From NCBI GenBank assembly GCA_964421635.1, contig CAYQWZ010000001.1:71267-135266 (forward strand): 64,000 nt of DNA, in the 5' to 3' direction. Below are positions 19,425 through 44,070 of the stretch, piece by piece (position 1 is the stretch's first letter; every line of letters begins with the position of its first letter). The notes under the pieces are model-generated. The model made no database searches. It had not been told where the DNA came from and saw nothing but the letters and a program-made list of their open reading frames with translations. Position numbers and translations under genes: made by a program. This DNA is from an uncultured Candidatus Saccharibacteria bacterium (lineage in GTDB: Bacteria > Patescibacteriota > UBA1384 > CAILIB01 > JAUSJZ01).

Positions 19425-19432
19425 AACAACTT

Positions 19433-19478
19433 TCACTCCCCTCAGCATTTACGAGACCGGTGGGGGAGTGATTTTTAA
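19433..19478 (+). terminator. Rho-independent terminator after the sbp-like gene.
   Basis: Perfect 9-bp stem tcactcccc/ggggagtga with a 21-nt loop, followed by TTTTTAATT. Confidence 0.6.
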
Positions 19479-22610: not shown

Positions 22611-25111
22611 GACAATATTTGGTTCTCTTCTTTATTATCGTTAATTGGAATCTGGTCAATCCTACTTCTCTTTAATATCATTTCTGAGACAGCTTTACCA
22701 TCTTTTCCGAACTTTAGTCGCGAAAGCTCTTTAATTGCTGCTCCTAATTTCTCGCTGCCCCCTTCGTTCCAGTCGCTTGACTTGCCTGTAAAAGGATTAG
22801 TTGGTGCTCCATCAATTAAGGTTTTTAAGTAAAAATATCTTTTTTCAATGCTAGTCATATCGTTAATAGCAATACCATCAAACTCATTGGTTAGAAAATC
22901 TGCATCGGTAGCGCCAACTCTAAACACAACAGATGTTCCAACATTACCAATAACCGCATCTCTCAACTCTTCCGTTAACTGAGCAATATACTGGTTAGTA
23001 ATATTTAAACTCAATTTATACTTTCTAGCCTCAGATAAAATTGTGGCAAAAGTTTCAGTGGTAAAGTTTTGAAACTCATCAACATACAGATAAAACGGTA
23101 CTCTCTGACTCTCTGGAACTTCTTGGCGTGAAAATGCCGCCAGCTGTAATTTAGAAACAATGATCATTCCCAAAAGATGTGAGTTCACTTCCCCTACTAA
23201 TCCTTTAGACAAATTAACTAGAAGGATCTTTTTATTGTCCATTATCTCTCGAAAATCAAAGCTGCTCTGCGGCTGGCCAATAATATTGCGCATCATATCA
23301 TTAGTCATAAAACGACCGAACTTGGAAACGAAATAATTTAACATCTCACTTTTACTTTGAGCTGAGGTTTGAGCCATCTGCTTCTCCCAGAAGGCTTTAA
23401 CTACTGGGTCAGTCACATGCGCTACACTGGCTTTTTCAAACTCTTTATCAACAAATAGGCGTGGAATTTCAACCAAGGTTCCCCCTTCCGGATTACTCAT
23501 TAAAGTTAGTGCTGCATTTCTAAGCCAGTGCTCGAACTGTGGCCCGACAATTCCTGTCTGATTAGGGTCAAACAGTTTATAAAACATTGAGACTGCCTCT
23601 TGCACTAAAAAGTCTTTATCTTCCGGTTTTTTCCACTCTAGCAGGTTTAAGCCAAACGGTCTGCCTGTATCTGCCGGATTAAAATAGACAACATCTTCTG
23701 CTCGCTCTTTTGGAATGCGACTTAAAATCCATTCAATAGCATCACCGTTAGGGTCAATGTAACAAACGCCATGGCCGGCCTGAATATCTTGCTCAATCAT
23801 ATTTTCAAATAGAACCGTTTTACCAACACCCGTTTTACCAATCATAAACAGATGCCGCATTCTATCATCAGGTTGTATATAGATTGGCTTTGTCTCTCCG
23901 CGATATACTGACTCCCCTATCTTAATTCCTTCCTTTGGCATATTAGATGGCGGCGATAATTTTCGCGAACCAAGCCAGGCAATATTCGGAGTATCTACAT
24001 TGGCGTTCGGTAAATGATAAACAGAGGCAATCTCTTTAGTGTTCAAAATCATAGTTGGCGAACTGCCAAACCGGCGAAAAATATAATCCTTAATAATGAC
24101 ATCGGGTTTTCTTTTGTTAACTCGAAATCCGTTTCTGTCTGGCGAGTTGAATTGGCCAAAAGCAGATATTATATTATTCAAATGATTTTTGGCCTCAATC
24201 TCTGTATTCGAGCTAGTGACACATCTTATCTGAACATCTAGTGCTTGGTCAGACATCTTCTCTTTCAAAAGCTCAATTAACACCTGATTTTTTGGCGAGA
24301 CCGTTTTTTGCTCCGGCAACGCTTGTGACTTATTATCACTTCCTCTGACAATCTCTTTTCCAATATCTCCCAATAAATTACCAGCCGAGCTCTTCCAATC
24401 CTTCGCTTCTTCTATATCTTTTCCATCCATTAATTCAGCCAACGCCTTCTCAATATTTTCCTGCCATTTTGCCTGTCGTGGTCTAATTAAAACCTGAACG
24501 GCACCGTTCGTTTCGGTCCCTAATTTAGAAAGCGCGCTGGAAATTGGGTTAAGTGTATCGACTTCAATATCGGGATAAGTTTTAATCGGAATCATATACG
24601 AGCGATTCAACTCCAAGTAAGCGGCATCGTAAGGCTTGTCCTGACCATTAAATAGTTGAAAATCTTTTGCCTCCTCAATTTGCGCCGAAGGATAAATAGA
24701 ATGAATTTGTCGCTCAATTAAATCTTTATGCAAAGCCGGCGTTGCTATGTAGAAAAATATCTCACTATTCTTAGCTAAAATTTCTAAAGAGAATGTTGGC
24801 TGAACCGGCTTGTTGAACATTGAAGGATTTTCAAAGATTGTTGTCAAACTATCTAACAGTGGTTCGAATATTGAGATTAGGTCTTTGTAATCTTTCTTCT
24901 CTTCGTCGTTACTCCCCTGCTCTTTGGGCACTAAAATTTTTAGAAAAATCAAATTCTTCGCCGCCGCTGTTTGGCCGACAATCGATTTCGCTTTATTTTT
25001 TCGCGTCAACCACCAAAAAACCAAAAAAGCAGCCACCAAAAAAATTATTAGTAAAGCTACCCCACTCTGGTTTGATTGTGTCGCTGCACCTTCAAAAAAG
25101 GGGTCGTTCAT
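22607..25111 (-). CDS. Membrane-anchored VirD4/TraG- or VirB4-like P-loop ATPase, copy 1 (834 aa), a paralogue of 19821-22610.
   Basis: Walker A 'GKTGVGKT'. 'YIDPNGDA'. 'YVDEFQNFTTETF...ARKYKLSLNITNQYIAQ'. N-terminal TM helix. Confidence 0.55.
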   Translation of the reverse strand: MNDPFFEGAATQSNQSGVALLIIFLVAAFLVFWWLTRKNKAKSIVGQTAAAKNLIFLKILVPKEQGSNDEEKKDYKDLISIFEPLLDSLTTIFENPSMFNKPVQPTFSLEILAKNSEIFFYIATPALHKDLIERQIHSIYPSAQIEEAKDFQLFNGQDKPYDAAYLELNRSYMIPIKTYPDIEVDTLNPISSALSKLGTETNGAVQVLIRPRQAKWQENIEKALAELMDGKDIEEAKDWKSSAGNLLGDIGKEIVRGSDNKSQALPEQKTVSPKNQVLIELLKEKMSDQALDVQIRCVTSSNTEIEAKNHLNNIISAFGQFNSPDRNGFRVNKRKPDVIIKDYIFRRFGSSPTMILNTKEIASVYHLPNANVDTPNIAWLGSRKLSPPSNMPKEGIKIGESVYRGETKPIYIQPDDRMRHLFMIGKTGVGKTVLFENMIEQDIQAGHGVCYIDPNGDAIEWILSRIPKERAEDVVYFNPADTGRPFGLNLLEWKKPEDKDFLVQEAVSMFYKLFDPNQTGIVGPQFEHWLRNAALTLMSNPEGGTLVEIPRLFVDKEFEKASVAHVTDPVVKAFWEKQMAQTSAQSKSEMLNYFVSKFGRFMTNDMMRNIIGQPQSSFDFREIMDNKKILLVNLSKGLVGEVNSHLLGMIIVSKLQLAAFSRQEVPESQRVPFYLYVDEFQNFTTETFATILSEARKYKLSLNITNQYIAQLTEELRDAVIGNVGTSVVFRVGATDADFLTNEFDGIAINDMTSIEKRYFYLKTLIDGAPTNPFTGKSSDWNEGGSEKLGAAIKELSRLKFGKDGKAVSEMILKRSRIDQIPINDNKEENQILS

Positions 25112-27757: not shown

Positions 27758-28282
27758 CTAATTTATTTTTTTACTTTGTACTTGATTCAAAACATTAACT
27801 AATCCTGAAAGTGGACCACGAATTACATTTACCAAGCCAGTCAATGGTGAGGCGATGACAAAAACTGTTTGTGCAAGTAACTGTTCTTTTGAAGGCAGAG
27901 ACGCTAGCTGTAACACAATATCTTTTTCAACCACCTTACCTTCGTATATTCCACCGACAACTTCTAGAACTTCTAATCTCTTAGCAAATTCATTAATGTC
28001 TTTTGAAACCTGAGCTTCATCTGTAGCTGAGGATGCAATAGCTAAAGGTTGACTATAGAATTCATCTGGCAGTTCAAGTTTGTTTTTCTTTAGCGCTAAC
28101 TTTAGTAAGTTGTTTTTGACAATTACGAAATCTTCATTATTTTCAAAAAACTTCTGTCTAATGTTTTCTGATTCCTCTACTGGTAATCCTTTATATCCTA
28201 AAATAACCGTCATTTTAGAACCGTCAATGACTTCGTGGTACTTGTTTACTAACTTCTCTTTTTGTACTCTTGTTTTTGGCAT
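27758..28282 (-). CDS. rplJ: 50S ribosomal protein L10.
   Basis: Position upstream of rplL, size and the '[11 protein letters not shown]' L10 pattern. Confidence 0.85.
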
Positions 28283-28440
28283 TTAAAAAACTGACTTATT
28301 AAAGTCAGAGATATTTAGAGATTATGCACGATTTGCGCGCTGTTCGTCTCGGCAGGACTTATGCTTGCCTGCTGTCTCTGACTTACTGAATTAGATTACC
28401 AAATTAGCAGGATTGTGTCAAACAATAATAAAAAAACCGC
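28283..28440 (-). promoter_or_regulatory. Candidate structured 5' leader of the rplJ-rplL operon (L10-leader-like).
   Basis: Several hairpins lie upstream of rplJ, for example ctgactt-att-aagtcag and ggcagg..cctgcc. The placement matches the known L10(L12)4 autoregulatory leader. The structure was not verified. Confidence 0.3.
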
Positions 28441-28470
28441 CGGCTTCTTTCGAAGTCGACGGGGAGTTCG

Positions 28471-28740
28471 TCAGGCCCGGTTGGGTGGCTTTTGAAGCTT
28501 GTTGGCCAGCACTTGGATTCCGAGCCATGCAACAGCTGAGATACCCAAAACGATGAGCATTACTGTTGGTAGACCCACCACAATCAACACCACCCCAACT
28601 GCCAAAGTGACCCTGGCGTTGGTCCTCATGCACTCGGCCGTACGAGGCACGAAGCTCTCTAGTCGATTGCTGTTGTAGATGCCCAACAGACTGAAGACGC
28701 TCACTGCCAGCCCGAGCCACAGACACCAGTAGATTCCCAC
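28471..28740 (-). CDS. Small 2-3-TM membrane protein encoded in a GC-rich patch.
   Basis: 89 aa. GTG start preceded by 'agaaaggggg'. Local GC is about 55% against a background of about 37%. Confidence 0.35.
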   Translation of the reverse strand: MGIYWCLWLGLAVSVFSLLGIYNSNRLESFVPRTAECMRTNARVTLAVGVVLIVVGLPTVMLIVLGISAVAWLGIQVLANKLQKPPNRA

Positions 28741-29071
28741 TGTGTGCCCCCTTTCTGTCTTTTAATATAACAAAAATACCCCTCTGATGCACGGTTTTTT
28801 TGGTTTTATCTAGATAATCATATTGTAATGTACTGTCATCTATAATTTAATTGATCACTATTCCAACAAGAAAGGAGGTGATCAGGCTAGTTACGGCACA
28901 AAAGACCTGGGTACCGGTAACTCAACTTTCAACGCCTCTAGCGTTGGCAAGATGACCGGTTCCAGCTCCAGTCAGGCAGCTGCTGCAGGCCACGCTGCTC
29001 GAGACGACATGCAGTCGTCTGGCGATATGGGGGTCTCTCCCAGCCGGGGCAAGTCGTGATCCTCAACTCAT

Positions 29072-29102
29072 GTCGGGGAGCTTCTCCCCGACACTTTTTT
29101 CT
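29072..29102 (+). terminator. Strong rho-independent terminator.
   Basis: gtcggggag-ctt-ctccccgac (9-bp perfect stem) followed by acTTTTTTcT. Confidence 0.65.
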
Positions 29103-29117
29103 GCTAAGTTCAAGCTA

Positions 29118-29462
29118 ATGAAAAAACCGGTAAATATTAATGAGAAAACCTGGGCTTTCTTAAATAAAAAACTTGGTACGAAGGATATTCAAAAAACCTT
29201 AGATAATCCTGGAAAAGTTTTGTTTGAACTGGGTTTTTTAAACAATCCTCAATTAGTAGTTGGCACAGTAATAGAAATGCCAAATGAAATTGAATATATG
29301 ATTACTGATCAAGGAGCAAAACAGCTTGCTGAAAATAACAATAATATAGAACTTAGAACCGTTTATGACCCAAGGTTGGAAATGTATCCAAAGGATGAAG
29401 TAATAAAAGCTTTGGTAGAAGGATTAATTTTTGACCAAGTAGATTCTACTCAACCAGCTTGA
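29118..29462 (+). CDS. Hypothetical protein.
   Basis: ORF track 29070..29462. The ATG at 29118 is preferred because the ATG at 29070 lies inside the terminator hairpin. It converges on and overlaps the rplA 3' end. Confidence 0.4.
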   Translation: MKKPVNINEKTWAFLNKKLGTKDIQKTLDNPGKVLFELGFLNNPQLVVGTVIEMPNEIEYMITDQGAKQLAENNNNIELRTVYDPRLEMYPKDEVIKALVEGLIFDQVDSTQPA

Positions 29463-32186: not shown

Positions 32187-33791
32187 TCAAAGAACTGATA
32201 TACCTGATGCAGCCCGTGCTAGAGCCTTTTTTGCCTTCGCATAGCGAAGAGTTGTGGCACCACTGGTTCCAAGGGCAAACAAAGCGAAAGCAATATCTGC
32301 TGGTCCGGTTATTGGAAGGATTGGGGTTGGCTCTACCGGAGTAGTAACAACTTCTTCCTTCTCTTCTGCTGGAACTTCTACTTTAATAAAGGCATCAGCA
32401 TCAACACTATCTGTCTCATCGGCAGTAGCTGTGGCGATGTTTCTTAATCTGTCGCCATCGTTGTTGCCTGACCCAACTTTAGCTTGAAAATAGATTGTAA
32501 TCTCTTCACCAGGTTTTAAGGCAGAACTTAAGGTGTATCCGTTGCCAGAAATAATGTTATCGTTAATGGCTACTCGAACACCGTCTCGCTCTAGCTGAAC
32601 TGACCCAACTTCAAAGTTAATTCCGCTTTGTAGTAAATCTTTAATATTTACATTGTGAGCATATTCAGCACTAACATTCTTAACGCGAATTCTGTATTCA
32701 ACTACATCATTGCGCTTAGTGTTAACCTCATCGCGCCAGTCAAAGCTTTGAGTTACATTTTTAACCTGTTTCTCAATAGTTAATGCTGGTCGTCCTGTTG
32801 GCGGCTCAATAGGAATATCAATGCGGTTTCCGTAGACATTTGTCATTACGAAGTTACCGTTAGCTGACCATTCAGATTCTGGTTTAACCTGCACATCAAA
32901 TGTACGAATTGCTATTTCGCCAGGCTTAATATCTACAGCCGGATAGCTTACTGTGCCACCTTTTAGACTGCCTGAATCAGATGCAGAAATAAAATTTGCA
33001 TACTCTAAGATATCACTAATGTCGTCTTCTACTACATATGCAGTTGATACTCGTTGTCCACGGTTTTCAGTTATTAGAGTATATACAATTGTATCTGCAG
33101 CATTTGCCTTAACTAAAGTTGCATCAACTCCTTGTGTAACATTATAAGCTCTCTTTGAACGAACAATGTCTGGGTTTCCAGCCGGATTAACTATGACATC
33201 GAATGTAACGAATCCTGAGTACTGCCAGCATCCGGTAATATCTCCAATGTTGATTCCTTCAGCAGTAATAATTGCATCTCCAGATTGGCCATTAGGTAGC
33301 ACAGTAGGTGTATTTGAACCATTCGGGTACCATTTGACTGACCCTGACACCATATTTAGAGAGGTTACATTATCAGTATTAATAGTTAAACCTGGTTGTC
33401 CAACTTCTTGACCATTAACAAATGTACCAGCAACTGCTCCTGCGTTATCTGCAGATAAACGAGCAGACAGTACATGAGATGTAGCGTCAGTGGTTGGCAG
33501 AGTTACGCTAATTTTGGTGTTTCTGGCTGCTTCCCCGTTTTGACCATTGTCAGTTAAAGCGTTGTTATGGTAAAAAACTCGAACGCGAACTGTGTCGTTA
33601 TCTGTAGCCGTTACTGGGTCAGAATAACTTGATTGACCAGCTGTAATATTGCGGCCTGTCAGTAACTCTAAATCTCCATCTAATTGGTTAAAGCGAGGAG
33701 TATTGTCAGCTAAAGCAGCAGATGGCAAAACTAAAGTTAATGCTGTTAAAGCTCCAATTACTACCTTTTTAATGCTTTTAAATAGATTCAT
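32187..33791 (-). CDS. Secreted DUF11 (conserved-repeat-domain) surface protein with a C-terminal LPITG sortase-type sorting signal.
   Basis: Signal peptide. DUF11-like 'RNDVVEYRIRVKNVS...NVNIKDLL'. C-terminus 'LPITG' plus a hydrophobic segment plus 'RYAKAKKALAR'. Confidence 0.6.
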   Translation of the reverse strand: MNLFKSIKKVVIGALTALTLVLPSAALADNTPRFNQLDGDLELLTGRNITAGQSSYSDPVTATDNDTVRVRVFYHNNALTDNGQNGEAARNTKISVTLPTTDATSHVLSARLSADNAGAVAGTFVNGQEVGQPGLTINTDNVTSLNMVSGSVKWYPNGSNTPTVLPNGQSGDAIITAEGINIGDITGCWQYSGFVTFDVIVNPAGNPDIVRSKRAYNVTQGVDATLVKANAADTIVYTLITENRGQRVSTAYVVEDDISDILEYANFISASDSGSLKGGTVSYPAVDIKPGEIAIRTFDVQVKPESEWSANGNFVMTNVYGNRIDIPIEPPTGRPALTIEKQVKNVTQSFDWRDEVNTKRNDVVEYRIRVKNVSAEYAHNVNIKDLLQSGINFEVGSVQLERDGVRVAINDNIISGNGYTLSSALKPGEEITIYFQAKVGSGNNDGDRLRNIATATADETDSVDADAFIKVEVPAEEKEEVVTTPVEPTPILPITGPADIAFALFALGTSGATTLRYAKAKKALARAASGISVL

Positions 33792-33793
33792 CT

Positions 33794-35782
33794 TTATAAG
33801 TTACTTCCGTTAGGAGCTTGTACTTCTAGGCGAATAATAGCTGCGTCGTGAATCTCAGCAGTATTATTATTGGCTCTTAAATAGGTTGTGTTAACTAAAT
33901 CGTGTAAGCCTAGAATTGGACAGTCAATTACTCGAACATCAAATTCGAAGCGTTTGGTTACACCTGGGTAAATTGAGAAGTTTCCTAATCCTCCAGCAAA
34001 GAAACGGTCGTCGTCTGTAATTGGCGTAGCTGAAATATGAGGATCCATTACTAATGAATTATCAACATAGTTGGTGAATTGCGGTAATACATCGCGAATT
34101 GAGTTAATTTGCAGTTGAGTGTTTCCAGTATTAACAATGTCAATTCGGTAACGAATGGTATCGCCTTCTTTTACTCGAGTAGCTGTAGTTTCAGCCCAGT
34201 CGTTTGTACGAGGGTCTCTTACCCACTTTGAAACGGTGTAGCCTGAAGTTACGCCGACTGTAATGTAGGCATTATCTGTGTCTTCAGTTCCATTAGTAGT
34301 AAAAACTTCACTTCTGTTTGTAAGAGTAATAGTTCCTGCAGGTAATCCTGAAGTATTTACCCTTACTATGAATCGGATATCAAAACCGTTTGTATTTCCA
34401 GGTTGAACAGTTCCAAGAGTCATTCCGGTTCCAAATAATGCATTTGCTCTACTGTCAGAAACTGGAGCATATGCACTCTCAGGAGAAGCTGAGCCTTTAA
34501 TTAACACAGCCCCATCGCGTGCAACATGAGCTGGTAGTATATCTTTAGCAAAAGCTTCAACAGCAGTGTTACCCGTGTTAACTACTCTTAGAGTGTATTC
34601 TACGGTGTCACCAGGGTTAGCTGGAACAGCTACATCATCTTGCAGCAAACTGCCTATAGTTATGTTTCGTACAGTTTTCTCAATATCAAAGTCAATAACA
34701 GCATCTGGTGTTCGAACTACATTGATAAATACCTGGTTCGTATTAGCAGATACGGCACTTCCGTTAGAAGTGCCAGCAACAGTAGCTTTGTTTAATAGAC
34801 GAGTGGTACCAATAGGAAAACTGTTATTTCCGTCAAGTGTAGCCTGAAAATATAGATGGATCGCGCGAGATGGAATAGCAGGAATATCTGAAAAGGCCCA
34901 GGTTAGAGTTTTTCCATTAAAAGCAATATATGAATCTGAAATGTTGTAACGAACATCTACGCCCGCATCGTTTCTGGTAATCATATATGACGAATTTGGC
35001 TTGTAGGTTAATTTATTATCAAGAGTATCTGTAACTGTAGGATTTTTTAAAACTGATCCGTTCTCACCATTATTCTCTACATAGACATGGAAAGCAGCTA
35101 CATTGCCAGGGGTGGTTGATACTCCGTCACGATGCCAAGTGTTGTCTATATTAGAAATAGCAACCTCTTTATAAGTTGAGATTTTAGCGTTACCGTGTGG
35201 CACATAAGTTGCAGAAAAGGTAATGGCTCTTAAGTAAGGCCAGCATCCCTTAATTGATCCTAGGTTTAATCCGTTATCTGTAAATAGACTGTTAGTATTG
35301 CCAATTGCTTGCTCAACATACTGACCGTTTTGGTTAATATAATGTTTAACAGAGCTAGTATCAACCTGAAGTTCTCCTGTGTTGGCAAGATTAACAGTGA
35401 CATTCTCGTTTACGCGAGTAGCATTATCGGCCCAGACTGATCCTTTTATAATATGTTGATTTGAAGCACCGGTAGGAATTTTTGCACTTACTTTAGTATT
35501 TGTAGCAGTTGAGTTCTCGACAGTGTTATGAACATACATGAAAAACTGAACAGTTTCCCCTTCATTTAGATTTACTGAGTTAGACCAATGAGTAGCACCG
35601 GCTTTTCTGACCTGAATAGTTGGCTCATCATTGGCATGATTATTGAAAATTGGAGTAGGATTAGCCTCAGCCTTTTTAATTTGTAACGGAAAGTTAGAAC
35701 CTAAAACTGTTGAAGTTAAAAGTCCTAATGCCAGAAACGGCACCAAAATTTTCTTTAAAATGTTTTTCATACCTATGTTCAT
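33794..35782 (-). CDS. Secreted DUF11-repeat surface protein (662 aa) without a sorting signal.
   Basis: Signal peptide. 'PGDTVEYTLRVVNTGNTAVEAFAKDILP' and 'EGDTIRYRIDIVNTGNTQLQINSIRDVLP' match TIGR01451-like repeats. It shares a 'GCW' N-domain motif with its neighbour. Confidence 0.6.
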   Translation of the reverse strand: MNIGMKNILKKILVPFLALGLLTSTVLGSNFPLQIKKAEANPTPIFNNHANDEPTIQVRKAGATHWSNSVNLNEGETVQFFMYVHNTVENSTATNTKVSAKIPTGASNQHIIKGSVWADNATRVNENVTVNLANTGELQVDTSSVKHYINQNGQYVEQAIGNTNSLFTDNGLNLGSIKGCWPYLRAITFSATYVPHGNAKISTYKEVAISNIDNTWHRDGVSTTPGNVAAFHVYVENNGENGSVLKNPTVTDTLDNKLTYKPNSSYMITRNDAGVDVRYNISDSYIAFNGKTLTWAFSDIPAIPSRAIHLYFQATLDGNNSFPIGTTRLLNKATVAGTSNGSAVSANTNQVFINVVRTPDAVIDFDIEKTVRNITIGSLLQDDVAVPANPGDTVEYTLRVVNTGNTAVEAFAKDILPAHVARDGAVLIKGSASPESAYAPVSDSRANALFGTGMTLGTVQPGNTNGFDIRFIVRVNTSGLPAGTITLTNRSEVFTTNGTEDTDNAYITVGVTSGYTVSKWVRDPRTNDWAETTATRVKEGDTIRYRIDIVNTGNTQLQINSIRDVLPQFTNYVDNSLVMDPHISATPITDDDRFFAGGLGNFSIYPGVTKRFEFDVRVIDCPILGLHDLVNTTYLRANNNTAEIHDAAIIRLEVQAPNGSNL

Positions 35783-35957
35783 ACTTTTTATGATTGTTCT
35801 TAATTAATCAGTTATTGCTCTGTTTGTCAATATCAGAGCAACTTCTGCCCGAGCAGATAAAGTTATTTATCTATTCGGGGGAAGGGGCGACCCGCTAGGC
35901 TTTCACCTATTGTGCGGGTCGCCCTCCGAAAGCAGCCGACTGTTGTCGGCCGGTGCG

Positions 35958-37220
35958 CTAGCGGCTGGTCGGGGTGAAACCCCAGACCGTTTCCCCATTG
36001 CTCGAAGCAACGGGGCGCAGCTGCGCGGTGCGTGTCCACGGCGATGTCGAGCGCGGTTGACCGTCACGGTCGATGCCGGTAGCGGCGTTAGCGCCCTGAC
36101 CGTTCCCTTGGTCAGCACTGCTGCCCTGCGCCGGTATGGGCACCGTGCTGTTGTCCGGGTTGGGCACCGATGCCGGCGGTGTGTTGACCGCTTCGTCGGG
36201 GCCCTCGCCTACCGTCGCCGGTCCACCGGGGTTAGCGGCGGGGGGTGCCGGCGTTGTGGGCTCCGGAGCATCCGGCTGTGGCAGGTCGCCGGCCGGTGGC
36301 GGTGGCTCGTCAGGGCACTGCTCATCCGGCTTCGGCTCGTCGGGCTCAGGCTCAGGCTTGGGCTCAGGCTGCTTCTCAGCCTTGCGGCTGGGAAAAAGCA
36401 CCACACCAGCGTTAACGCTGATGCGTGTCCGCTCCGTCACCTGTCGCGGCCCAGACTGGACCGTGCCCACATCGTCTCGTTCGACCATCGCGCTAAGCAC
36501 GATGCCCGTAGCGGCGTTGACATAGACATTGACCACCTGGACTTGGGCCTGTTCCTGTTCGATGGTGCAGGCTTCAGCCGGCGGTCCCGGAGGCCCTTGC
36601 GGACCCGGCTCTCCAGGCTTGCCACGATCACCTTGCAGACCAGGCTTACCAGGTTTTCCCGGCTCGCCTCGCTCACCTTGGATGCCAGGAATTCCAGGAC
36701 GTTCAGGAGGGCAAGGCTCGAAGACCTTGTCGCCGAACGCCATGTTGGCACACTCCCGAGGGATCACAAGGCTACCTTCGAGCTTGGCGTTCGATGGCCC
36801 CGGATAGAGCACATTGAGCACATACGCCCATGCCTTGTGCCGCAACTTGACCTGATCCTTGATGGACTTGCCATCGCCGAAGGTCATGTTGTCGAACACA
36901 TAGCCCGCCGGAAACTCCAGCAGGTAGACGCCGTGCTCTTCCGAGCCCGGTTCTACCAACCCGACTGCCATCCGCTCGGTGATATCACGCATGATAACCA
37001 ACCGAGCAGCGCGGTCGTTGACGTTGGCCAGATCCAAGACATGGCTGACATCGTTGTATCCGCGCTGTGAATCCAGATGAGCCCTCAGAGCTTCAAAGCT
37101 CTGAATGCCACCCGGAACACGCGGGTTTCGGTCAAGGCTGACCGGAATTGGCGCCGCCTCAAGCGGCGCTACCATGACCATCATGACGATGGCCAGTACG
37201 CTTACCTTCAACCGCTTCAT
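35958..37220 (-). CDS. Secreted collagen-like triple-helix-repeat protein, encoded in the GC-rich island.
   Basis: Signal peptide '[17 protein letters not shown]'. About 14 G-X-Y triplets ('[39 protein letters not shown]'). '[16 protein letters not shown]' linker. RBS aaaggagg. About 65% GC. Confidence 0.6.
36596..36725 (-). repeat. Collagen G-X-Y triplet repeat-coding tract.
   Basis: Periodic ggN-ccN-NNN codons on the minus strand. Confidence 0.6.
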
Positions 37221-37338
37221 GGCGGCCTCCTTTTGTTCAGTCGTTAGATTGTTCAGTATTCCTCAGTTTGTCCCACCGAAGTGTGGCAAACAGTTGGACA
37301 GGCGAACGGTTGTTACACCGCTCGCCCAGGTTAGCAGA

Positions 37339-38679
37339 TCACTCTGCCCCTTCTCCTCCCAAAGGCGGCGAAGGTAGCTGGGCACTGAAAGCGCCCAGCA
37401 GGTCTGACTCATCCGGATTGCCCCAGACGAGCGTCCGCGACTCCGTCCCCTGATGAACGGGGACAATGTCGCCGTTGAATCCGCCCTCGGCGTAGTGCCA
37501 CGCCAAACCACTACTGGCTAGCGTGTCACCCACCGCCTCCGAATGGGCCAGCACCGCGTACTTCATGTCGTCGTAACAGGCATTGATCACCTGTTGGTTG
37601 ATGACGAACATGACATCACACGTGTCAGCCCCGGTCCAGTAAAGGACCAACGGATGGACTGCCCTACCAGCCAGCCGCTCTTTGACAGCAGCGGGTAGCT
37701 CGATGGAGGCTTTGCCGTTCGCATCCGGCCTGACCAGCGCTAGGCTGGCTTGCCGAGATGCGAATCTCTGCAGGGGCTGGCAGATGGATTCGGTCGAAAC
37801 CTCCTCCACCTTGTCAGGGTCAACGAATAGCACCAGCGCCACCATGCGAGGTGAATGCTTGGCCTTTCTCCCCTCCGCATCGCGGAATTTGACTTCCACG
37901 AACGGAGCGTTCGACCATAGCTGCGATTGCGGTCGCTGAGCGTGGTAAAACGCTCCCATGCCGCCGTTTACCGGATCAGCTTTGCTCCAGCCGACCATGC
38001 GGTAGAACCGCACGATCTCTCGCAGCGTTTCCGCCGGCACGGGTGTATCAGCCAAGACCGAAGCCAAGGCATCACCACCATCGGCAGGCTGCCACCCCTG
38101 CCAGTTGGTGAATTCAACCTCCACCGTCTGGGATATCCAGAGGTTGGAGTGTCGAACATTGTGGAAAAAGAGTAAAAAGGTGTCCGTCATGCGGACTCCC
38201 TTCTCTATCTCCACCACCAGCTGGAACCGCATGACCTGGCGAAACTCACCAGGGTTGCTGGCCCGATACAGGAGCTGGATTCGTACCAGATCTTCGTACC
38301 GAAGCCAAACCACCTGGTTGACAGCGTCGAAGACGCCGTACGCCTCCTCACTGCCAGCCAACTGGAACCAGGCTCGTTTGACAGCCTTGCCTTCGGTGGC
38401 AAGGTTGAGGTGCGCTTCAAGCTCACCTCCCCAGCCGAACACCGACCTCAACGAAGCCAGTGACACCGCCACCCACTCACGACCCATTCCGGGCGCTTCG
38501 CGGCGAGCGGTGTACGCGAGGTACGGAATCCCCATCTGGGGATTGACTCGTTCCTCCCGCTGTTCGAGCAAAGGCGCCGAAGCGTTAACGCCGACAGCGG
38601 GCTCAACACTCTGCGCCGGGATGGCGCAGGCCAGGACGGCGATCATAGCCGCCGCCATCGCTAGACGCAGATTACGCAT
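37339..38679 (-). CDS. Secreted hypothetical protein (446 aa), encoded in the GC-rich island.
   Basis: Signal peptide 'LAMAAAMIAVLACAIPAQS'. RBS aaggagaagga. About 62% GC. No recognisable family. Confidence 0.45.
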   Translation of the reverse strand: MRNLRLAMAAAMIAVLACAIPAQSVEPAVGVNASAPLLEQREERVNPQMGIPYLAYTARREAPGMGREWVAVSLASLRSVFGWGGELEAHLNLATEGKAVKRAWFQLAGSEEAYGVFDAVNQVVWLRYEDLVRIQLLYRASNPGEFRQVMRFQLVVEIEKGVRMTDTFLLFFHNVRHSNLWISQTVEVEFTNWQGWQPADGGDALASVLADTPVPAETLREIVRFYRMVGWSKADPVNGGMGAFYHAQRPQSQLWSNAPFVEVKFRDAEGRKAKHSPRMVALVLFVDPDKVEEVSTESICQPLQRFASRQASLALVRPDANGKASIELPAAVKERLAGRAVHPLVLYWTGADTCDVMFVINQQVINACYDDMKYAVLAHSEAVGDTLASSGLAWHYAEGGFNGDIVPVHQGTESRTLVWGNPDESDLLGAFSAQLPSPPLGGEGAE

Positions 38680-38839
38680 TTCGATCCTTCTCCTTGTTCT
38701 CGTATCCTTTTGGATTTTCAGGTTCAGCGTCCTAAGACGCCGACAGCCGCCTATAAGCGCTTTTAGAGCAACTTTTAGACAGCTTGTCGATGCCGTAACA
38801 CTAACATAAAATTACCTTATTGTCAACCAATTAGCCTCT

Positions 38840-41623
38840 TTAGAAACCACTATTAGCCCCAACTTGCGCTTCAGCCAAGTTTTGGGCCTCAGCTTCCGCT
38901 TCTTCTATCTTTTCCGGAGTAATGTGAACGCCTGAATACCTGTGGTCAAAACCGTCCTCGGGAACATTCATTTCAAACGGTTCCTCAACAGGCTCTACAC
39001 CTGTTGGAACAGCCGCTTGAGCAGCCTCTGAACTCTCTGACATAATGTCAGGCTCCACCACACCGCCAGCCACCTGAGCTTCATCTGTTGTTAACGAAGT
39101 GTTCCCCGCAGTCATTTCTGGCTCATCAAGCTCATTGCCTCCAATAGTGACATCGCTGTCTTCGCTATACAGCGCATGCTCAGTAACAGACAAATCTGAA
39201 TCAACAGACTCGGGTATATCAACCTCATTAATAGAAGGATTATCAACTTCAGGAATTTCTCCATCTGCGACAGTTGTGTCACTATCAAATAAATTTGTTT
39301 CAACACTAGCCGCACTATCACTATCTAAATCAATTGATTCACTGCCCTCACCAACAACATTTCCAGCTGTTTCATGGGCATCCACAACAGCCGAATTCTC
39401 TGAATTTTTAATTCCAAACAATTCATTTATAAATCCGTCATTTTGGGTTGGAGGTGCATCTGCAGCATCAGGCACGGCTGGTGGCTCAACAGCATCAGAC
39501 ACAGTAGAATCTTCTGCGGCTTCACGAGCAACGGCTTCAGCAGCATCACGAGCTTCATTAGCAGCACTTTTAATAGCCCGTACAATTTCGGCTCTTTGCT
39601 CAAATGCATTTCTCACACTAATTCCGTGACCAGTACAATTTTCATTTAAGAATAATTGCACTTTTGCATTCAAAGTCTGAGATAGTTCACTGACTACCTG
39701 AACCTGACCAGAATCGTCAACACTCCAGCTATCAGCCAGATGAGTTCCAGCATTTTTTACACTCTCTACAAAACTAGTTCTTAAAGTATCTAATGCTCCG
39801 CTCATATCTGATCCTTCTGGTAAATCTACATCTGACAAACCAGCTTTTGCCAAAACTTCACCGACACGATATTCAACGAATCCTCCTCCTCCAAAAACTT
39901 TCTCAATAGCTGAGTTCATAGCAGTTTGAGTAACATTATCAGCGTTAAAAATTATAGTTCCTGATCCTTCGTGGATAGTACCGATATTCGAACCAAACCC
40001 ATTCACATGAGCGGCTAAATTGTGTATATCAATATCACCGGCATTATTAATAATGTCAGCATCTACTACTCCATGTTCATGAAGGATTGCCTCTGCTAGA
40101 TGAGCACGCAATGAGTGGGCAGCATAATCAACATCTTCCAAAGATGTGTCTGAACCAGTCAACTCTCTGAATTCAGAATTCAGTTGCTCAAGCTGGTGAA
40201 CTAATCCAGCATCGTGACCTTTTAATTGCAACTGTGCAATAATTTCTCTTGATCGCTCAATACAGCTATTAACGCTGTTAACATTTTCCGCTGCAACTTC
40301 AATATCTAGTTGCTCAAACACTGTTTGGTGAATATTCTCAGGCGTACCTAATGTAGACGCTGATTGCTCATATAATTCGTGAACATGCTGGCGAACTTTT
40401 TCAACTTGAGCTGCAGTATAACCCATCGCAGGTACCGGTGCAGCAGGCGCATCTGTTACTGTATCATGATCAGCTCTTAGAGCTGCTAGATACCCACCAC
40501 CAATTGCAGCACCTAAAACTCCAATTCCAATAGAAATCCATGTCTTTGTACTTCGTCTTCGTCTGGCAAAATTGATTTCACTTTGCATAGCAACTATAGC
40601 GTCCTCCTCAGACAATCCACTATCAATTAACACCCTAAACAAAAGTCTCTGATAAGTTTTTTCATCTTGCTCCGACATTGACTGACCTCGCCTCTGCAAT
40701 CTAGTAGAGTAAAGGTGGGCATCAGCTAGTTTTCGTCTTGCTTCCCCAACACTCATATTTGGTAAATTTTCACCTTGCGTTTCATCATCTGCACCTTCTT
40801 CAACACTTTCTGTATTACCAAATATATCCTCACTAGACAATAAGAACTCTTCTTCTCTTAACTGACGAGCTTTTACTAATCTAGCAAAAGGATGCCAAAC
40901 CGAAACATCATTACCTTTACCTGAACCTAAATTTCTGATTAAAGCCCCAAATCTTTGTAAGCCGTTTCCCTTATAAGCCCAACTTCTAGCAGTTATCTTT
41001 TCTACAGTAGTTTTAGCCGACAGAAAACCAAAAAGTCCTCCAACAAATCCTCCCGCACCGCCAAGCATAGCGGCTCTTTTAATTTCCCTTCTGGTAATAA
41101 AACTAACTGCCGCTCCTGTTACCCCACCAATAATGGTATGAGTAGCTCCAAAAAGACCTAAGCTAAGAATTTTTTTAATTCCGAAATTAGTTCTGTGTAT
41201 AATATCCTCGACTCTTTCTAATAAGTTTGGATCAGTAATTTCCTTTACAGCATCAATAGCAATATCTTCTAAAATTGTCGCCATTACTTCTGCTTGTTCA
41301 GCGTCTATTTCTATATCTGTGACATCTTCACAGTTAGCAATTATTTCTCTTACTTGAACCAACTGCTCTGTTTCATCATAAGAAAATTCACCCATTCCAG
41401 TAACTCTTTCAATGGTTAATTGAAATTGCCCCTCAGCAACAGGTTCTATAGAATCTTCAATAGTTGGTACTGTAAGCGCAGACGCAACTACTGGCTCATC
41501 CTGCACAATATAATCTCCGGATTCATCAAAACCAGCTACAAAATTAGCACCAGGAATTAATAGCTCACCAGTTGGGCCAACTATTGGCTCACCGCCACCA
41601 AATTCAGGACTTTGAGATGTCAT
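38840..41623 (-). CDS. Large (927 aa) acidic protein with central glycine-zipper/TM segments and a long disordered D/E-rich C-terminus.
   Basis: 'LGLFGATHTIIGGVTGAAV', 'AAMLGGAGGFVGGLFGFLSA' and 'ISIGIGVLGAAIGGGYLAAL'. No N-terminal signal peptide. Translationally coupled to the upstream 90-aa ORF. Confidence 0.45.
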   Translation of the reverse strand: MTSQSPEFGGGEPIVGPTGELLIPGANFVAGFDESGDYIVQDEPVVASALTVPTIEDSIEPVAEGQFQLTIERVTGMGEFSYDETEQLVQVREIIANCEDVTDIEIDAEQAEVMATILEDIAIDAVKEITDPNLLERVEDIIHRTNFGIKKILSLGLFGATHTIIGGVTGAAVSFITRREIKRAAMLGGAGGFVGGLFGFLSAKTTVEKITARSWAYKGNGLQRFGALIRNLGSGKGNDVSVWHPFARLVKARQLREEEFLLSSEDIFGNTESVEEGADDETQGENLPNMSVGEARRKLADAHLYSTRLQRRGQSMSEQDEKTYQRLLFRVLIDSGLSEEDAIVAMQSEINFARRRRSTKTWISIGIGVLGAAIGGGYLAALRADHDTVTDAPAAPVPAMGYTAAQVEKVRQHVHELYEQSASTLGTPENIHQTVFEQLDIEVAAENVNSVNSCIERSREIIAQLQLKGHDAGLVHQLEQLNSEFRELTGSDTSLEDVDYAAHSLRAHLAEAILHEHGVVDADIINNAGDIDIHNLAAHVNGFGSNIGTIHEGSGTIIFNADNVTQTAMNSAIEKVFGGGGFVEYRVGEVLAKAGLSDVDLPEGSDMSGALDTLRTSFVESVKNAGTHLADSWSVDDSGQVQVVSELSQTLNAKVQLFLNENCTGHGISVRNAFEQRAEIVRAIKSAANEARDAAEAVAREAAEDSTVSDAVEPPAVPDAADAPPTQNDGFINELFGIKNSENSAVVDAHETAGNVVGEGSESIDLDSDSAASVETNLFDSDTTVADGEIPEVDNPSINEVDIPESVDSDLSVTEHALYSEDSDVTIGGNELDEPEMTAGNTSLTTDEAQVAGGVVEPDIMSESSEAAQAAVPTGVEPVEEPFEMNVPEDGFDHRYSGVHITPEKIEEAEAEAQNLAEAQVGANSGF

Positions 41624-41625
41624 AA

Positions 41626-41898
41626 TTAAGCTATAGCTTTATTTAATTTTTCTTGAGCTTCGCGCAAAACTTCCAATTCTACATCTTTATAAACGGCAAT
41701 AATGTCAATCTCCCACTTATTTTCGAAATCAATTAAAGATTCAGAATCAAACTTGTTCTCCAACACATTCAGAAAATCAGCCAAAGCGTCTTGGCCAAAA
41801 TTATTCTGAATATATACAAAAACACGAGCTTCTACCGCTCGCTCAAATGCACCCCTAATTTTTTTATCTTCAATTTTCATAATAATATTTTCGATCAA
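41626..41898 (-). CDS. Small acidic cytoplasmic protein (90 aa), a possible chaperone or partner of the 927-aa protein.
   Basis: Its stop lies 2 nt before the start of the next gene. No TM. Confidence 0.35.
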   Translation of the reverse strand: MIENIIMKIEDKKIRGAFERAVEARVFVYIQNNFGQDALADFLNVLENKFDSESLIDFENKWEIDIIAVYKDVELEVLREAQEKLNKAIA

Positions 41899-42057
41899 AT
41901 ATCTAGCCAGAGGCGAGGCCTGATAACAGAAACAACATCACTCTGCGCTAAGCGCATTTAACGATATTGCCGTTGAGGATCTGTTATACAATAATCCGCC
42001 ACCTCCAGCCAGGTATTTGACCAAAACTTGTCATGTAATTATCGAAGAAATCATAGC

Positions 42058-42090
42058 AAAATAAAGGGGTTTTGTCAACCCCAAAGCGAA
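42058..42090 (-). terminator. Rho-independent terminator after the Doc-family gene.
   Basis: Minus-strand ggggtt-gacaa-aacccc followed by TTTATTTTG. Confidence 0.5.
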
Positions 42091-42099
42091 CTATCGCAT

Positions 42100-42711
42100 C
42101 TATTTCTTAGATCTTTTTTTACCTATTCTTATAGCTCTTCGTCTATGCTTGTTTTTTTGTTTTTTCTCTTTGGGCTGGTTTTGATTTTTTTGTCGACGAC
42201 GGCGAATCCAGTATACCGGAGTAATTAAGCCCAAAGCCCACCAAATGCGTCGAAATATTCCCGCATTTTTAATCTTGCTCTTCTTCTTTACATTCTTATC
42301 TAACCAGCTGGTAATTTTTTGTAGTATCTCATTTCGCTCATCGGCTCTAGATTTTGCAATCCTTACTGCCCAAACATAAATTCCTCTTTGTTCGCTATCT
42401 AGCCAATGGTTGTTTAAATATAAAAATACTAAAAGCGCGGTGGTGGCAATTCTTTTGTTGCCATTAGAAAAAGGATGGTTCTTAATCAACGCATAAAACA
42501 TAACGGCGGCCTTAGCAGCCAATGTAGGATAAAGTTCTTTGCGACCAAATGTGGCTCGCGGTAGTGATAAGGCTGAATCTAAAAGAGCTGGTATATGCTT
42601 GTCAAAGGTGGGAATTGGTTCATTATATTCAGAAAAATAAGATTTAGCTAAACGGTGCGTCACCTCTTGCATTAGCTCTGAGGTGAGATAAACAGTTCGA
42701 CGGGCCATCAC
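42100..42711 (-). CDS. Doc/Fic-family toxin (Fic motif HPFSNGNKR) with a C-terminal TM helix and polybasic tail.
   Basis: 'HPFSNGNKRIATTALLVFL' matches the Doc HxFx(D/N)GNKR motif. C-terminal 'IWWALGLITPVYWI' plus 'RRRRQKNQNQPKEKKQKNKHRRRAIRIGKKRSKK'. Confidence 0.7.
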   Translation of the reverse strand: MMARRTVYLTSELMQEVTHRLAKSYFSEYNEPIPTFDKHIPALLDSALSLPRATFGRKELYPTLAAKAAVMFYALIKNHPFSNGNKRIATTALLVFLYLNNHWLDSEQRGIYVWAVRIAKSRADERNEILQKITSWLDKNVKKKSKIKNAGIFRRIWWALGLITPVYWIRRRRQKNQNQPKEKKQKNKHRRRAIRIGKKRSKK

Positions 42712-42857
42712 TCATCTCCTAATTTCTTCAAGACATCACCATACTCATGGACAATTTTGTCTACCACTGTCTCAATTTTACGCTCCATCTTTTTTGAAAG
42801 CTTTCTGTTCTGCTTCTTCTTCTTGGCTATAATTTTTCTTTTTTTCTTTCTACGCAT
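42708..42857 (-). CDS. Candidate small antitoxin-like ORF (about 50 aa, highly basic N-terminus) coupled to the Doc gene.
   Basis: Its stop TGA overlaps the Doc ATG (TGATG). The product reads 'MRRKKKRKIIAKKKKQNRKLSKKMERKIETVVDKIVHEYGDVLKKLGDE'. It is below the ORF-track size cut-off. Confidence 0.3.
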   Translation of the reverse strand: MRRKKKRKIIAKKKKQNRKLSKKMERKIETVVDKIVHEYGDVLKKLGDE

Positions 42858-42861: not shown

Positions 42862-44070
42862 TTAATTTAAAAACGCAAACAATTCATTATTTAAATATTT
42901 TATAGTTTTTACCTTGTTCGCTTCACACACTTCATTATTAAGATACTCGTGTAATGCCGCCAAAGCCTTGGGTAAATTCAAATCACTCGCCACTTCTTCT
43001 TTAATTTTTTGCACTACTGCTTTATTGATTTCGCCCTTTCCTTCAGATTTGTCAGCAGCCAATATTTCTTCTAATTTCTTTCTGCCACTCTTTGCAGCTT
43101 CTAATGCTTGCCAAGTAAAGTTCTGTTTTTTTCTGTAATGTGTTTGGCAAATTAAATATCTGTAATCTAGAGGTGAGAAATTTTTCTTTTTCAAATCTTG
43201 CAGTGTGTAGGCATTTCCCTGACTCTTCCCCATTCGCTTACCATCTACTAACAGATGCTCAATGTGCATCCAAATGTCTACGAACTTCTTGCCCGTAGCA
43301 GCTTCGCTTTGTGCCAGCTCATTTTGATGATGCGGAGATAATAAATCAATTCCTCCTAAATGAAGGTTAACCGTCTTCCCACTCGTTAATTTCATAGCCA
43401 TTACTGAACATTCAATGTGCCAGCCAGGAAATCCTTTACCTTCAATTCCTAAAGGATTCTCCCATTCCATATCTCGCTTCTCACCCTTTGGAGAGAATTT
43501 CCATAAAGCAAAATCTGTAGCGTTCTTCTTCTCTTCATTCTTTTCAACCCTAGCTCCCTCTTTAATGCCAGCCAAATCTAGATTCGATAGCTCGCCATAT
43601 TTATTAAACTGCTTCGTATTAAAATAAATTCCGTCCGATGTTTGATATGTAAACTCTTTCTCTGCCAGCTGCTCAATAAGTTTTTTCATTTCCTCAACAC
43701 AATCCGTCGCCCGATAAATCTTATCTGGATTTTGTATGTTCAGCTTCTTCATATCAATCTCAAACTTCTTTATATTCTCGTTGGCTACTTCTATGGCCGA
43801 TTTTCTTTCCAACTTGGCCTGCTTGGCAATTTTGTCTTCTCCCGTATCTGCATCTGAGGTTAAGTGCCCAACATCTGTATAATTCATTCCCCAAACTACC
43901 TCTTGCCCACCAAAGCGCAACGCCCTCACCAAAAAGTCATACATTAAGAATGTTCGCCAATTGCCTAATGTAGCTTCGTTATATACTGTTGGGCCGCAAC
44001 TATATACTGAAAGCTCTTTTACTTTTGGCATATCCTCATTCGTTTTTGAGGCAGTGTTATATATTTTCAT
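42862..44070 (-). CDS. cysS: Cysteinyl-tRNA synthetase-like class I aaRS (short, with a degenerate HIGH motif).
   Basis: 'CGPTVYN', 'GWHIECS', 'SPHHQNELAQS' and 'GKRMGKSQGN' align to CysS. HIGH is replaced by 'TLGNW'. Confidence 0.65.
   Translation of the reverse strand: MKIYNTASKTNEDMPKVKELSVYSCGPTVYNEATLGNWRTFLMYDFLVRALRFGGQEVVWGMNYTDVGHLTSDADTGEDKIAKQAKLERKSAIEVANENIKKFEIDMKKLNIQNPDKIYRATDCVEEMKKLIEQLAEKEFTYQTSDGIYFNTKQFNKYGELSNLDLAGIKEGARVEKNEEKKNATDFALWKFSPKGEKRDMEWENPLGIEGKGFPGWHIECSVMAMKLTSGKTVNLHLGGIDLLSPHHQNELAQSEAATGKKFVDIWMHIEHLLVDGKRMGKSQGNAYTLQDLKKKNFSPLDYRYLICQTHYRKKQNFTWQALEAAKSGRKKLEEILAADKSEGKGEINKAVVQKIKEEVASDLNLPKALAALHEYLNNEVCEANKVKTIKYLNNELFAFLN

Follow-up and report, generated by a model that had tools for sequence, protein, structure and literature searches.

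A compositionally distinct and strongly folded pair of secreted-protein genes maintained within an old envelope locus of a Saccharibacteria genome

The window considered here is a 64,000-nucleotide (nt) stretch of contig CAYQWZ010000001.1 from an uncultured Candidatus Saccharibacteria bacterium. Its six co-directional minus-strand open reading frames (ORFs) spanning positions 32187-41898, all present where the initial annotation had placed them, include two neighbouring genes for secreted proteins of 446 and 420 amino acids (aa) that together form a GC-rich island. GC content rises in steps, as had been described, from about 0.37-0.42 to 0.45-0.46 at the 3′ end of the adjacent 927-aa gene and to 0.57-0.69 over roughly 35.9-38.8 kb, and then falls to 0.39-0.41; the island is the sole stretch with a 500-nt GC of at least 0.52 in the approximately 82 kb of genome read. 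Recent horizontal transfer is most often flagged by an atypical GC content. This flag is wrong here, as the anomaly is ancient, sits at one site and has stayed constant while GC at neutral sites of the three host genomes ranges from 28% to 59%. The behaviour of the island is the reverse of what the amelioration model predicts, and its coding regions give a folding signal that is strong and replicated. The region as a whole is best explained as a stretch of envelope-protein genes that is old and has been inherited vertically, in a groundwater bacterium with a small genome, and the earlier reading of a surface locus is supported by the run of predicted envelope and surface proteins (an adhesin pair, the two secreted proteins and a membrane protein with an acidic C-terminus). 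It is tentatively proposed, with a little less than an even chance of being right, that inside this old locus selection acts on the transcripts themselves, which would be long-lived, heavily translated mRNAs for abundant surface proteins.

Age and composition of the island

The window (W) was compared with two further lineages, its closest relative L004 (L4) from the Crystal Geyser aquifer and L008 (L8; GCA_030647115.1). Both junctions between low-GC and high-GC DNA are 100% identical to the window in three independent assemblies, which rules out an assembly chimera. The genes of L004 follow the order Fic, 84 aa, 918 aa, 458 aa, 421 aa, 661 aa, 535 aa and RF2, and those of L008 the order 436 aa, 359 aa, 667 aa, 537 aa, RF2, YbaB, Pth and L1, so that site, gene order and orientation of the island are shared by three lineages whose housekeeping proteins are 46-84% identical. 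Identities of the window to L004 and L008, respectively, are 73 and 63% for RF2, 71 and 52% for L1 and 73 and 46% for Pth, and within the cassette 71 and 60% for the 662-aa protein, 62-66 and 31% for the 446-aa protein and 60 and 41% for the 420-aa protein. The island proteins evolve somewhat faster than their surroundings and branch in the same way as the flanks. The simplest history would place the island in the common ancestor of the three lineages, followed by vertical descent.

The initial annotation had taken the island for captured foreign DNA, and its composition is indeed what recent horizontal capture from a GC-rich donor, inserted into a surface locus and not yet ameliorated, would look like. 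All codon positions and the amino-acid usage resemble those of a genome of about 60% GC, GC at third codon positions (GC3) is 0.69-0.70 against 0.24-0.37, Shine-Dalgarno usage appears foreign and the 10-nt word AGAGCAACTT lies near both borders. Capture in the recent past is nevertheless hardly credible, given the congruent trees, the shared site in three diverged lineages, where neither patchy presence nor incongruence was found, and a turnover of synonymous sites that has left GC unchanged. No tRNA, integrase among the neighbouring genes or convincing border repeat accompanies the island, and there are no over-represented or uptake-like words common to the three islands. The 10-nt word was rejected as an insertion scar, being only partly conserved (AAGT.GCT 5′ of the 446-aa gene in W and L4, and an AAG core 5′ of the 662-aa gene) and differing in position relative to the two promoters. 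A donor family for the 446-aa protein was sought in 1.84 billion representative proteins, GTDB representative genomes, JGI metagenomes, phage and plasmid tblastn searches and IMG/VR, and none was found.

Horizontally acquired islands reportedly lose their anomaly with time under the amelioration model of Lawrence and Ochman. The present locus shares with such islands a sharp compositional anomaly at all codon positions and atypical translation signals. It differs from them in showing no decay to host composition despite saturated synonymous change, in occupying one site in three diverged lineages and in having no mobility genes, att-like repeats or detectable donor.

The constancy of the island is most apparent when it is set against flanks that have drifted. 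GC3 of the 446-aa and 420-aa orthologs is 0.70 and 0.69 in the window, 0.73 and 0.70 in L004 and 0.77 and 0.74 in L008, whereas that of the flanking genes is 0.26-0.37, 0.32-0.43 and 0.51-0.57, respectively. When four-fold degenerate sites are restricted to residues that all three lineages keep, GC is 72, 73 and 70% in the island and 28, 40 and 59% in the flanks of W, L004 and L008. Between W and L004, 50-64% of the four-fold sites differ in the island, where the ceiling from base composition is ~0.71, and 48-73% differ in the flanks. Because synonymous sites are near saturation, yet GC is constant, the GC content is actively maintained; and because those sites have been rewritten, to G or C, un-ameliorated foreign DNA is excluded. 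The best explanation is that island composition is kept at an equilibrium of its own, with a four-fold GC of ~71%, which would be independent of the genome background.

The shift is general in kind. G- and C-ending codons are both raised in every codon family, Ala, Pro, Gly and Arg are used more and Ile, Lys and Asn less, and spacers have a GC content of 43-53% in the island against 23-40% elsewhere. Translational codon selection was considered as the cause of the high GC3 and rejected on two grounds: codons ending in G and in C are raised alike whatever the family, and no GC enrichment is seen in the ribosomal protein genes. GC3 switches abruptly at the gene borders, being 0.30 in the first 150 nt of the 662-aa gene. 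On the other side only there is a mild gradient, the last ~300 nt of the 927-aa gene (38840-39140) having a GC3 of 0.38-0.44 against 0.12-0.28 upstream.

A composition that never decays could also arise if each lineage repeatedly replaced both genes by homologous recombination with GC-rich DNA from a partner or host. Such re-supply would account for the sharp borders, and DNA uptake is plausible given dprA and recR nearby and a type IV pilus cluster adjoining the window. It is nonetheless very unlikely, as the island trees match those of the flanks, as no second copy of either island protein in a GC-rich context was found in the 90% or 50% identity clusters, all carrying contigs having low-GC flanks, and as it leaves unexplained the folding in excess of composition that is described below.

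Folding, expression signals and selection on the transcripts

Folding of the island mRNAs was compared with that of sequences in which synonymous codons had been permuted within the gene, a procedure that preserves the protein, codon usage and GC content, and the excess is given in kcal/mol per 120 nt, negative values standing for more stable folding of the native sequence. For the 446-aa orthologs the excess is -9.5 (z = -8.0) in the window, -8.0 (z = -9.0) in L004 and -2.9 (z = -3.1) in L008, and for the 420-aa orthologs it is -4.1 (z = -4.7), -6.1 (z = -4.7) and -5.4 (z = -4.2), respectively. By comparison, 48 other genes of the window give 0.04 +/- 1.08 (range -2.8 to +2.0), the flanking genes of L004 and L008 lie mostly between -1.5 and +1, and 16 natural, GC-matched genes of the Pseudomonas plasmid pWW0 with a GC content of 48-73% have z values from -3.4 to +2.7. 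The excess is distributed along the whole ORF. It is also seen when 1 kb of the 446-aa gene is shuffled with dinucleotides preserved (z = -7.0 for the sense strand, -6.1 for the antisense strand and, by comparison, -1.0 for the 662-aa gene), and the sense-strand excess is the larger one in three of the six island genes.

Two alternatives place the cause of this folding outside the messenger function. The first is a neutral bias acting locally on the DNA, either a recombination hot spot with GC-biased gene conversion or template switching that makes GC-rich quasi-palindromes. It would fit a shift that reaches all codon families, spacers and amino-acid usage, the mild GC3 rise at the end of the 927-aa gene, the presence of excess folding on both strands and hairpins that turn over rather than being conserved pair by pair, as well as the 18 perfect 7-bp stems of the window 446-aa gene, where 4.6 are expected. 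The excess of perfect stems is, however, missing in most orthologs, GC3 drops at the 662-aa gene with no gradient on that side, the sense-strand excess is larger in half of the genes and function is suggested by the conserved signals for expression that surround each gene. In bacteria, the known effect of biased gene conversion is a shift of GC3 by a few points, not by 40. Taken together, a neutral cause of this kind is judged unlikely.

The second alternative is that the nucleic acid itself is functional, in that large structured RNAs or a DNA structural element overlapping both ORFs impose GC content and folding. In AT-rich genomes, structured RNAs classically stand out as GC-rich patches. 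Folding z values of -7 to -9 are unusual for coding sequence, and between W and L4 three hairpins of the 446-aa gene (about nt 110-250) show three compensatory changes and no break in any of their 40 pairs. Such an element is improbable, since each ORF has a signal peptide and a Shine-Dalgarno site, both have remained intact in three lineages and both are under purifying selection, as judged from a proportion of nonsynonymous changes (pN) of 0.24-0.28 that lies well below that of synonymous changes (pS, 0.59-0.66; W against L004). Covariation across the gene as a whole is weak, and Rfam has no match in the window at the gathering threshold, the sole island match being a chance hit of 15 bits.

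The expression signals around the two genes are conserved (Table 1). Strong Shine-Dalgarno sites precede both island genes in all three lineages and only ~3 of 54 other window genes. The promoter-like site of the 446-aa gene reads TTGACA, a 17-nt spacer and an extended -10 of TGnTAG(T/A)(G/T)T across the three lineages. The leader that follows folds into a long hairpin at its 5′ end and then a further one (GGCGUC...GACGCU), after which the Shine-Dalgarno sequence AAGGAG (38695-38690) lies in an open stretch rich in A. The promoter with the best score in the region, upstream of the 84-aa gene, overlaps a terminator-like hairpin located 3′ of the Fic/Doc gene. The cassette had been thought to be one operon. 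The conserved promoter-like boxes and the terminator-like hairpins with compensating changes instead appear to divide it into at least three and probably four transcription units, comprising the 84-aa and 927-aa genes, the 446-aa gene, the 420-aa gene and the adhesin pair. In the first unit the 84-aa gene may be translationally coupled to the 927-aa gene, and the GC-rich island would correspond to the second and third units.

As a separate observation, recognisable Shine-Dalgarno sequences are absent from ~50 of the 56 window genes, the clear exceptions being the two island genes, ribonucleotide reductase (6164), Fic (42711) and the prepilin peptidase (start 62307).

It is proposed that these features act together at the level of the mRNA. 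The strong Shine-Dalgarno site and terminator hairpin of each island gene would favour strong translation and termination, while the conserved strong promoter and the leader with its 5′-terminal hairpin would additionally give the 446-aa gene an mRNA protected at its 5′ end. GC content and the arrangement of synonymous codons would create pervasive secondary structure in both coding regions. In combination, these properties may yield unusually long-lived and heavily translated mRNAs, probably for abundant surface proteins; we infer the high expression and the long mRNA life, as well as that both are traits under selection.

There is a precedent in genes for S-layer proteins, which have strong promoters and mRNAs 6-10 times more stable than average (PMC8056022), and 5′-terminal stem-loops are known to stabilise mRNA (PMC8056022, citing Emory et al. 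1992). The island genes resemble those for S-layer and other major surface proteins in having a strong ribosome-binding site and a terminator hairpin each and, for the 446-aa gene, a strong promoter and a 5′-terminal hairpin in a long leader. They differ from them in the GC enrichment and over-folding of the entire coding region, a feature not described for S-layer genes, and in that the island proteins contain no SLH or other S-layer domain.

A broader version of the proposal, possible if rather doubtful, is that of a gene-specific 'isochore', in which two genes are held at their own four-fold GC of ~71% with synonymous structure that is largely not position-specific, throughout a clade at the family or order level, by selection on physical properties of the transcript. 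The property selected could be extreme mRNA longevity in tiny, ribosome-poor cells. Neither horizontal transfer nor biased gene conversion nor translational codon selection would account for such a state.

Several observations weigh against selection on the transcripts. The excess folding is equal on both strands in three of the six genes and in these is also compatible with a DNA-level cause. Conservation of base pairs from W to L4 is only weak: where both partners have changed, pairing is kept in 50% of cases when pooled against ~39% in shifted controls, with no signal in one direction. RF2 of L004 (L004 16582-17640) also folds in excess (z = -4.7), the window RF2 having z of about -1.1 to -1.5. 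Ribosomal protein genes, which are presumably highly expressed, are not GC-rich (L1 GC3 0.33), and we know of no case in which selection for mRNA stability has shifted a whole gene by 30-40 GC3 points together with its amino-acid usage. Only three lineages are known, which limits comparative power, and synteny spans all neighbouring housekeeping genes, so that conserved order is no proof that the six genes cooperate.

Table 1. Genes and putative expression signals of the cassette (window positions; minus strand unless the strand is given as a point)
Feature	Position	Strand	Basis or remark
534-aa CLIPPER/DUF11 and TIGR04226 protein; C-terminal LPITG, hydrophobic segment and basic tail	32187..33791	-	ORF and hidden Markov model (HMM) matches
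662-aa protein with signal peptide, 'GCW' N-terminal domain and 3-4 CLIPPER/DUF11 immunoglobulin (Ig)-like repeats; no LPxTG	33794..35782	-	ORF and HMM matches
Promoter-like site of the adhesin pair: TTGACA (35830-35825), 17-nt spacer, TTAATT	35802..35830	-	TTGAC core invariant in three lineages
Compositional island as a whole	35880..38790	.	GC 0.57-0.69 against 0.37-0.42; sharp borders at gene boundaries
Perfect 11-bp GC hairpin 3′ of the 420-aa gene	35885..35924	-	L004: C-to-T in one arm, G-to-A in the other, pairing kept
420-aa secreted protein, GC 0.63, GC3 0.69	35958..37220	-	ORF
Shine-Dalgarno AAGGAGG of the 420-aa gene	37232-37226	-	Sequence
Terminator-like GC hairpin 3′ of the 446-aa gene	37301..37326	-	Three lineages, compensating changes
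446-aa secreted protein, GC 0.60, GC3 0.70	37339..38679	-	ORF
Conserved leader of the 446-aa gene, ~110 nt	38680..38790	-	Conservation and folding
Promoter-like site of the 446-aa gene: TTGACA (38826-38821), 17-nt spacer, extended -10 TGnTAGTGT (hexamer 38803-38798)	38798..38826	-	Three-lineage alignment
927-aa orphan membrane protein	38840..41623	-	ORF
Small acidic orphan protein, 84 aa	41626..41880	-	ORF and ortholog; alternative TTG start at 41898 gives 90 aa
Sigma-70-like promoter TTGACA-17-TATGAT with TG extension, 5′ of the 84-aa gene	42050..42078	-	11 of 12 matches, best of the region

Proteins of the cassette and the neighbouring Fic/Doc gene

Both GC-rich ORFs had been called secreted, and each has an N-terminal signal-like hydrophobic segment. 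The 420-aa protein comprises a signal peptide, a conserved N-terminal domain (residues ~25-170), 13-14 collagen-like Gly-X-Y (GXY) triplets (174-214) and a beta-rich middle part, from which a Pro-rich acidic linker leads to a conserved C-terminal end. The GXY run passes the Pfam Collagen family PF01391 (32.8 bits against 27.2) and is kept in L004, while in L008 a duplicated Pro-rich repeat stands in its place, and because of this replacement an extended spacer rather than a triple helix appears to be what is conserved. With the bacterial collagen-like surface proteins Scl1/Scl2, BclA and Lcl the protein shares its signal peptide, a globular region at the N-terminus and the presence of a GXY run, but it has only ~13-14 triplets and no LPxTG motif, and scores 16 bits with the NCBIfam Lcl model, the cut-off of which is 500. 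Two other leads were discarded: a resemblance of its N-terminal domain to the collagen-binding domain of a clostridial collagenase (PDB, E ~0.4) is lost with a three-sequence profile and is attributed to chance, and matches to tail-fibre families in PHROGs arise from the collagen repeat only.

The 446-aa protein is secreted and has no recognised fold, a structure model from the alignment of three sequences having a predicted local distance difference test (pLDDT) score of 45. A word-indexed search of 5.8 billion proteins returned only the protein itself and its L004 ortholog, to which a full HMMER search of 1.84 billion representative proteins added the L008 ortholog (E = 3e-23). The latter profile also matched residues 324-388 eight times in P0012, a protein of 1608 aa with eight tandem repeats of ~130 aa (summed E = 8e-12); this match is treated as spurious and is probably a compositional or repeat artefact.

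The 534-aa and 662-aa proteins downstream of the island are better placed in known families. The DUF11 repeats that had been noted in both score 38.9 and 41.5 bits, respectively, with PF01345 (gathering score 24.6), and the proteins also match TIGR04226, the RrgB-type isopeptide-forming fimbrial domain (40.4 and 35.0 bits, cut-off 30), and TIGR01451 (43.7 and 67.2 bits, cut-off 24). They are paralogs (BLASTP E = 6e-19) whose alignment covers the shared 'GCW' N-terminal domain that had likewise been pointed out and that matches no family. In the 534-aa protein the predicted sorting signal is present, with LPITG at residue 495 followed by PADIAFALFALGTSGATTL and the basic tail RYAKAKK, and the motif is kept as LPITG in L004 and LPISG in L008; the 662-aa paralog has no LPxTG sorting signal. 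The window was said to contain no sortase, and this holds: the TLxTC motif is absent from every window ORF of at least 100 aa, and no PF04203 sortase gene lies in the ~18 kb past both window ends (flanks L011 and L013), so that ~82 kb of genome is covered.

DUF11 has recently been renamed CLIPPER and comprises a CnaA-like Ig fold with an intramolecular isopeptide bond that occurs in fibrillar adhesin stalks (bioRxiv 10.1101/2025.04.25.650565). The matches support the assignment of the two proteins as probable paralogous adhesin or pilin proteins of the isopeptide type. Because CLIPPER forms fibrillar adhesin stalks and the protein has an LPxTG signal, the 534-aa member is a likely wall-anchored adhesin or pilin-like protein, which may be attached to the wall by a sortase encoded elsewhere in the genome. 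The pair shares with sortase-anchored fibrillar adhesins and pilins of the CnaA-like type a signal peptide and, after a non-repeat domain at the N-terminus, Ig-like CLIPPER repeats in tandem, to which the 534-aa protein adds the LPxTG motif, hydrophobic segment and basic tail. It differs from them in that there is no sortase or pilus-assembly gene within ~82 kb and in that the 662-aa protein has no sorting signal; unlike sortase-assembled pili, the pair has no adjoining sortase and LPxTG occurs in only one of the two proteins. The pair is an ordinary addition to an already known kind of protein, and it extends the surface repertoire of these organisms by a conserved CLIPPER protein with an LPxTG anchor.

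The first transcription unit encodes a pair of orphans. The small acidic protein was given 90 aa in the initial annotation; the corresponding ORF exists (41626-41898), but the most likely start is the ATG at 41880, because the ortholog and public gene calls have 84 aa and conservation begins at that Met. The protein shares 64% identity with the L004 ortholog, and its core AFERAVEARVFVYIQNNFGQ is invariant. The reported 2-nt gap to the 927-aa gene is real, and it is 8 nt in L004. The 927-aa protein is 34% identical to its ortholog of 918 aa, with a ratio of nonsynonymous to synonymous substitution (dN/dS) of 0.29. An acidic N-terminal part of ~150 aa is followed by Gly-zipper-like hydrophobic stretches at ~152-203 and 361-383; residues 386-700 are predicted to be mostly helical, and the remainder forms a disordered acidic tail. 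Two of the three Gly-zipper segments claimed earlier (184-203 and 361-383) pass the Kyte-Doolittle threshold, the third (~152-176) being weaker, and the acidic tail is present but ~227 aa long (residues 701-927; 24.7% D+E, 1.3% K+R) and not ~300 aa.

Neither protein has a match in Pfam, NCBIfam, PADLOC or PDB sequences or among 5.8 billion proteins, and PHROGs gave only weak matches to families of unknown function (E of at least 0.0095), the 927-aa protein matching a single insignificant family (E = 0.042). Two large searches of up to 5.8 billion proteins returned only the 927-aa protein itself, plasmid and IMG/VR collections gave nothing, and homology to a housekeeping family was looked for and not found. 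An AlphaFold model of the 927-aa protein from its single sequence is largely helical, with a pLDDT of 38.6, and unusable. The positive-inside rule lets us infer an inside N-terminus that leads into a Gly-zipper hairpin; a basic loop in the cytoplasm would then join it to a third span, beyond which ~545 acidic residues would lie outside.

The pair had been compared with a chaperone/effector or membrane-inserting toxin module, with the downstream genes as unrelated neighbours. The tight coupling of the two genes, the fast divergence of the large protein, its Gly-zipper segments and a Fic/Doc toxin gene next door would all suit such a module. The searches give no evidence either way, in that both proteins are without a family, structure or toxin match. 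As searches of Pfam, NCBIfam, PADLOC and PHROGs revealed no domain typical of a toxin, an immunity protein, a secretion signal, a chaperone or a defence system, the Fic/Doc gene already has its own upstream partner of 49 aa, the pair belongs to the core chromosome of at least two lineages and the acidic, low-complexity tail is not a polymorphic C-terminal toxin architecture, a module of this type has little chance of being correct. The pair is read here as a putative membrane-anchored acidic envelope protein with a small cytoplasmic partner rather than as a toxin.

The Fic/Doc gene itself (42100-42711, minus strand) lies outside the cassette. It scores 49.6 bits with PF02661 and 48.5 bits with TIGR01550 (cut-off 38.65), and it also matches the PADLOC candidate system PDC-S23. 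An extremely basic ORF of 49 aa, which overlaps its 5′ end by 4 nt and is kept in L004, is a likely antitoxin, so that the pair spans 42100-42857 on the minus strand. The window copy of Fic has an extra Lys/Arg-rich C-terminal tail of ~60 aa that is absent in L004. As in Doc/Fic-Phd toxin-antitoxin pairs, a Fic/Doc domain above the cut-off is accompanied by an overlapping small ORF at the 5′ side; the small ORF here differs in being extremely basic and without a family match.

Wider neighbourhood and significance of the locus

The window is core chromosome and contains ftsA, ftsZ, ribonucleotide reductase, an AddA-like helicase-nuclease, rmuC, secDF, two VirD4-like ATPases and tgt, as well as rplK/A/J/L, prfB, pth, cysS, recR, topA and dprA. 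Sample type and gene content point to a probable bacterium of the Patescibacteria/CPR type. A type IV pilus cluster lies just right of it (L011 1275-11264) and comprises two N_methyl pilins, a PilC-like protein, two PilB/PilT-like ATPases and a PilO-like protein, while a prepilin peptidase and a pilin-like gene are located inside the window at 61007-62307. The VirD4-like proteins are encoded by tandem overlapping genes of 929 and 834 aa (19821-25111, minus strand) with coupling-protein ATPase domains of the VirD4/TrwB type (PF10412, PF02534, PF12696), beside which no other type IV secretion genes are recognisable. At ~19400-19850, gene orientation converges (plus on the left, minus on the right) and cumulative GC skew peaks, a pattern expected at a replication terminus.

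Between rplJ and rplA, ~1.16 kb (28283-29445) separate the two genes against 124-142 nt in L004 and L008, which resembles a small lineage-specific insertion. This stretch has a GC content of 0.43-0.49, and 700 nt of it fold with z = -3.45. It holds an 89-aa ORF with two membrane spans and a strong terminator (28471-28740, minus strand) and a 130-aa ORF of no family (29070-29462, plus strand), and a sub-threshold match to the L10 leader lies at 28275-28399 (28.7 bits against 44). The cysteinyl-tRNA synthetase of the window (42862-44070) has 402 aa against 461 aa in L004 (4518-5903) and is without the C-terminal ~59 residues, the CysS_C region.

The island offers a concrete case for how far GC content and structure in the coding region control the life of bacterial mRNA. 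If selection on the transcripts is the true cause, it would be among the clearest natural cases in which the structure and composition of the mRNA, and not the protein or the match of codons to tRNAs, dominate the synonymous evolution of whole genes, and the two secreted proteins would probably be major surface components of this uncultivated lineage.

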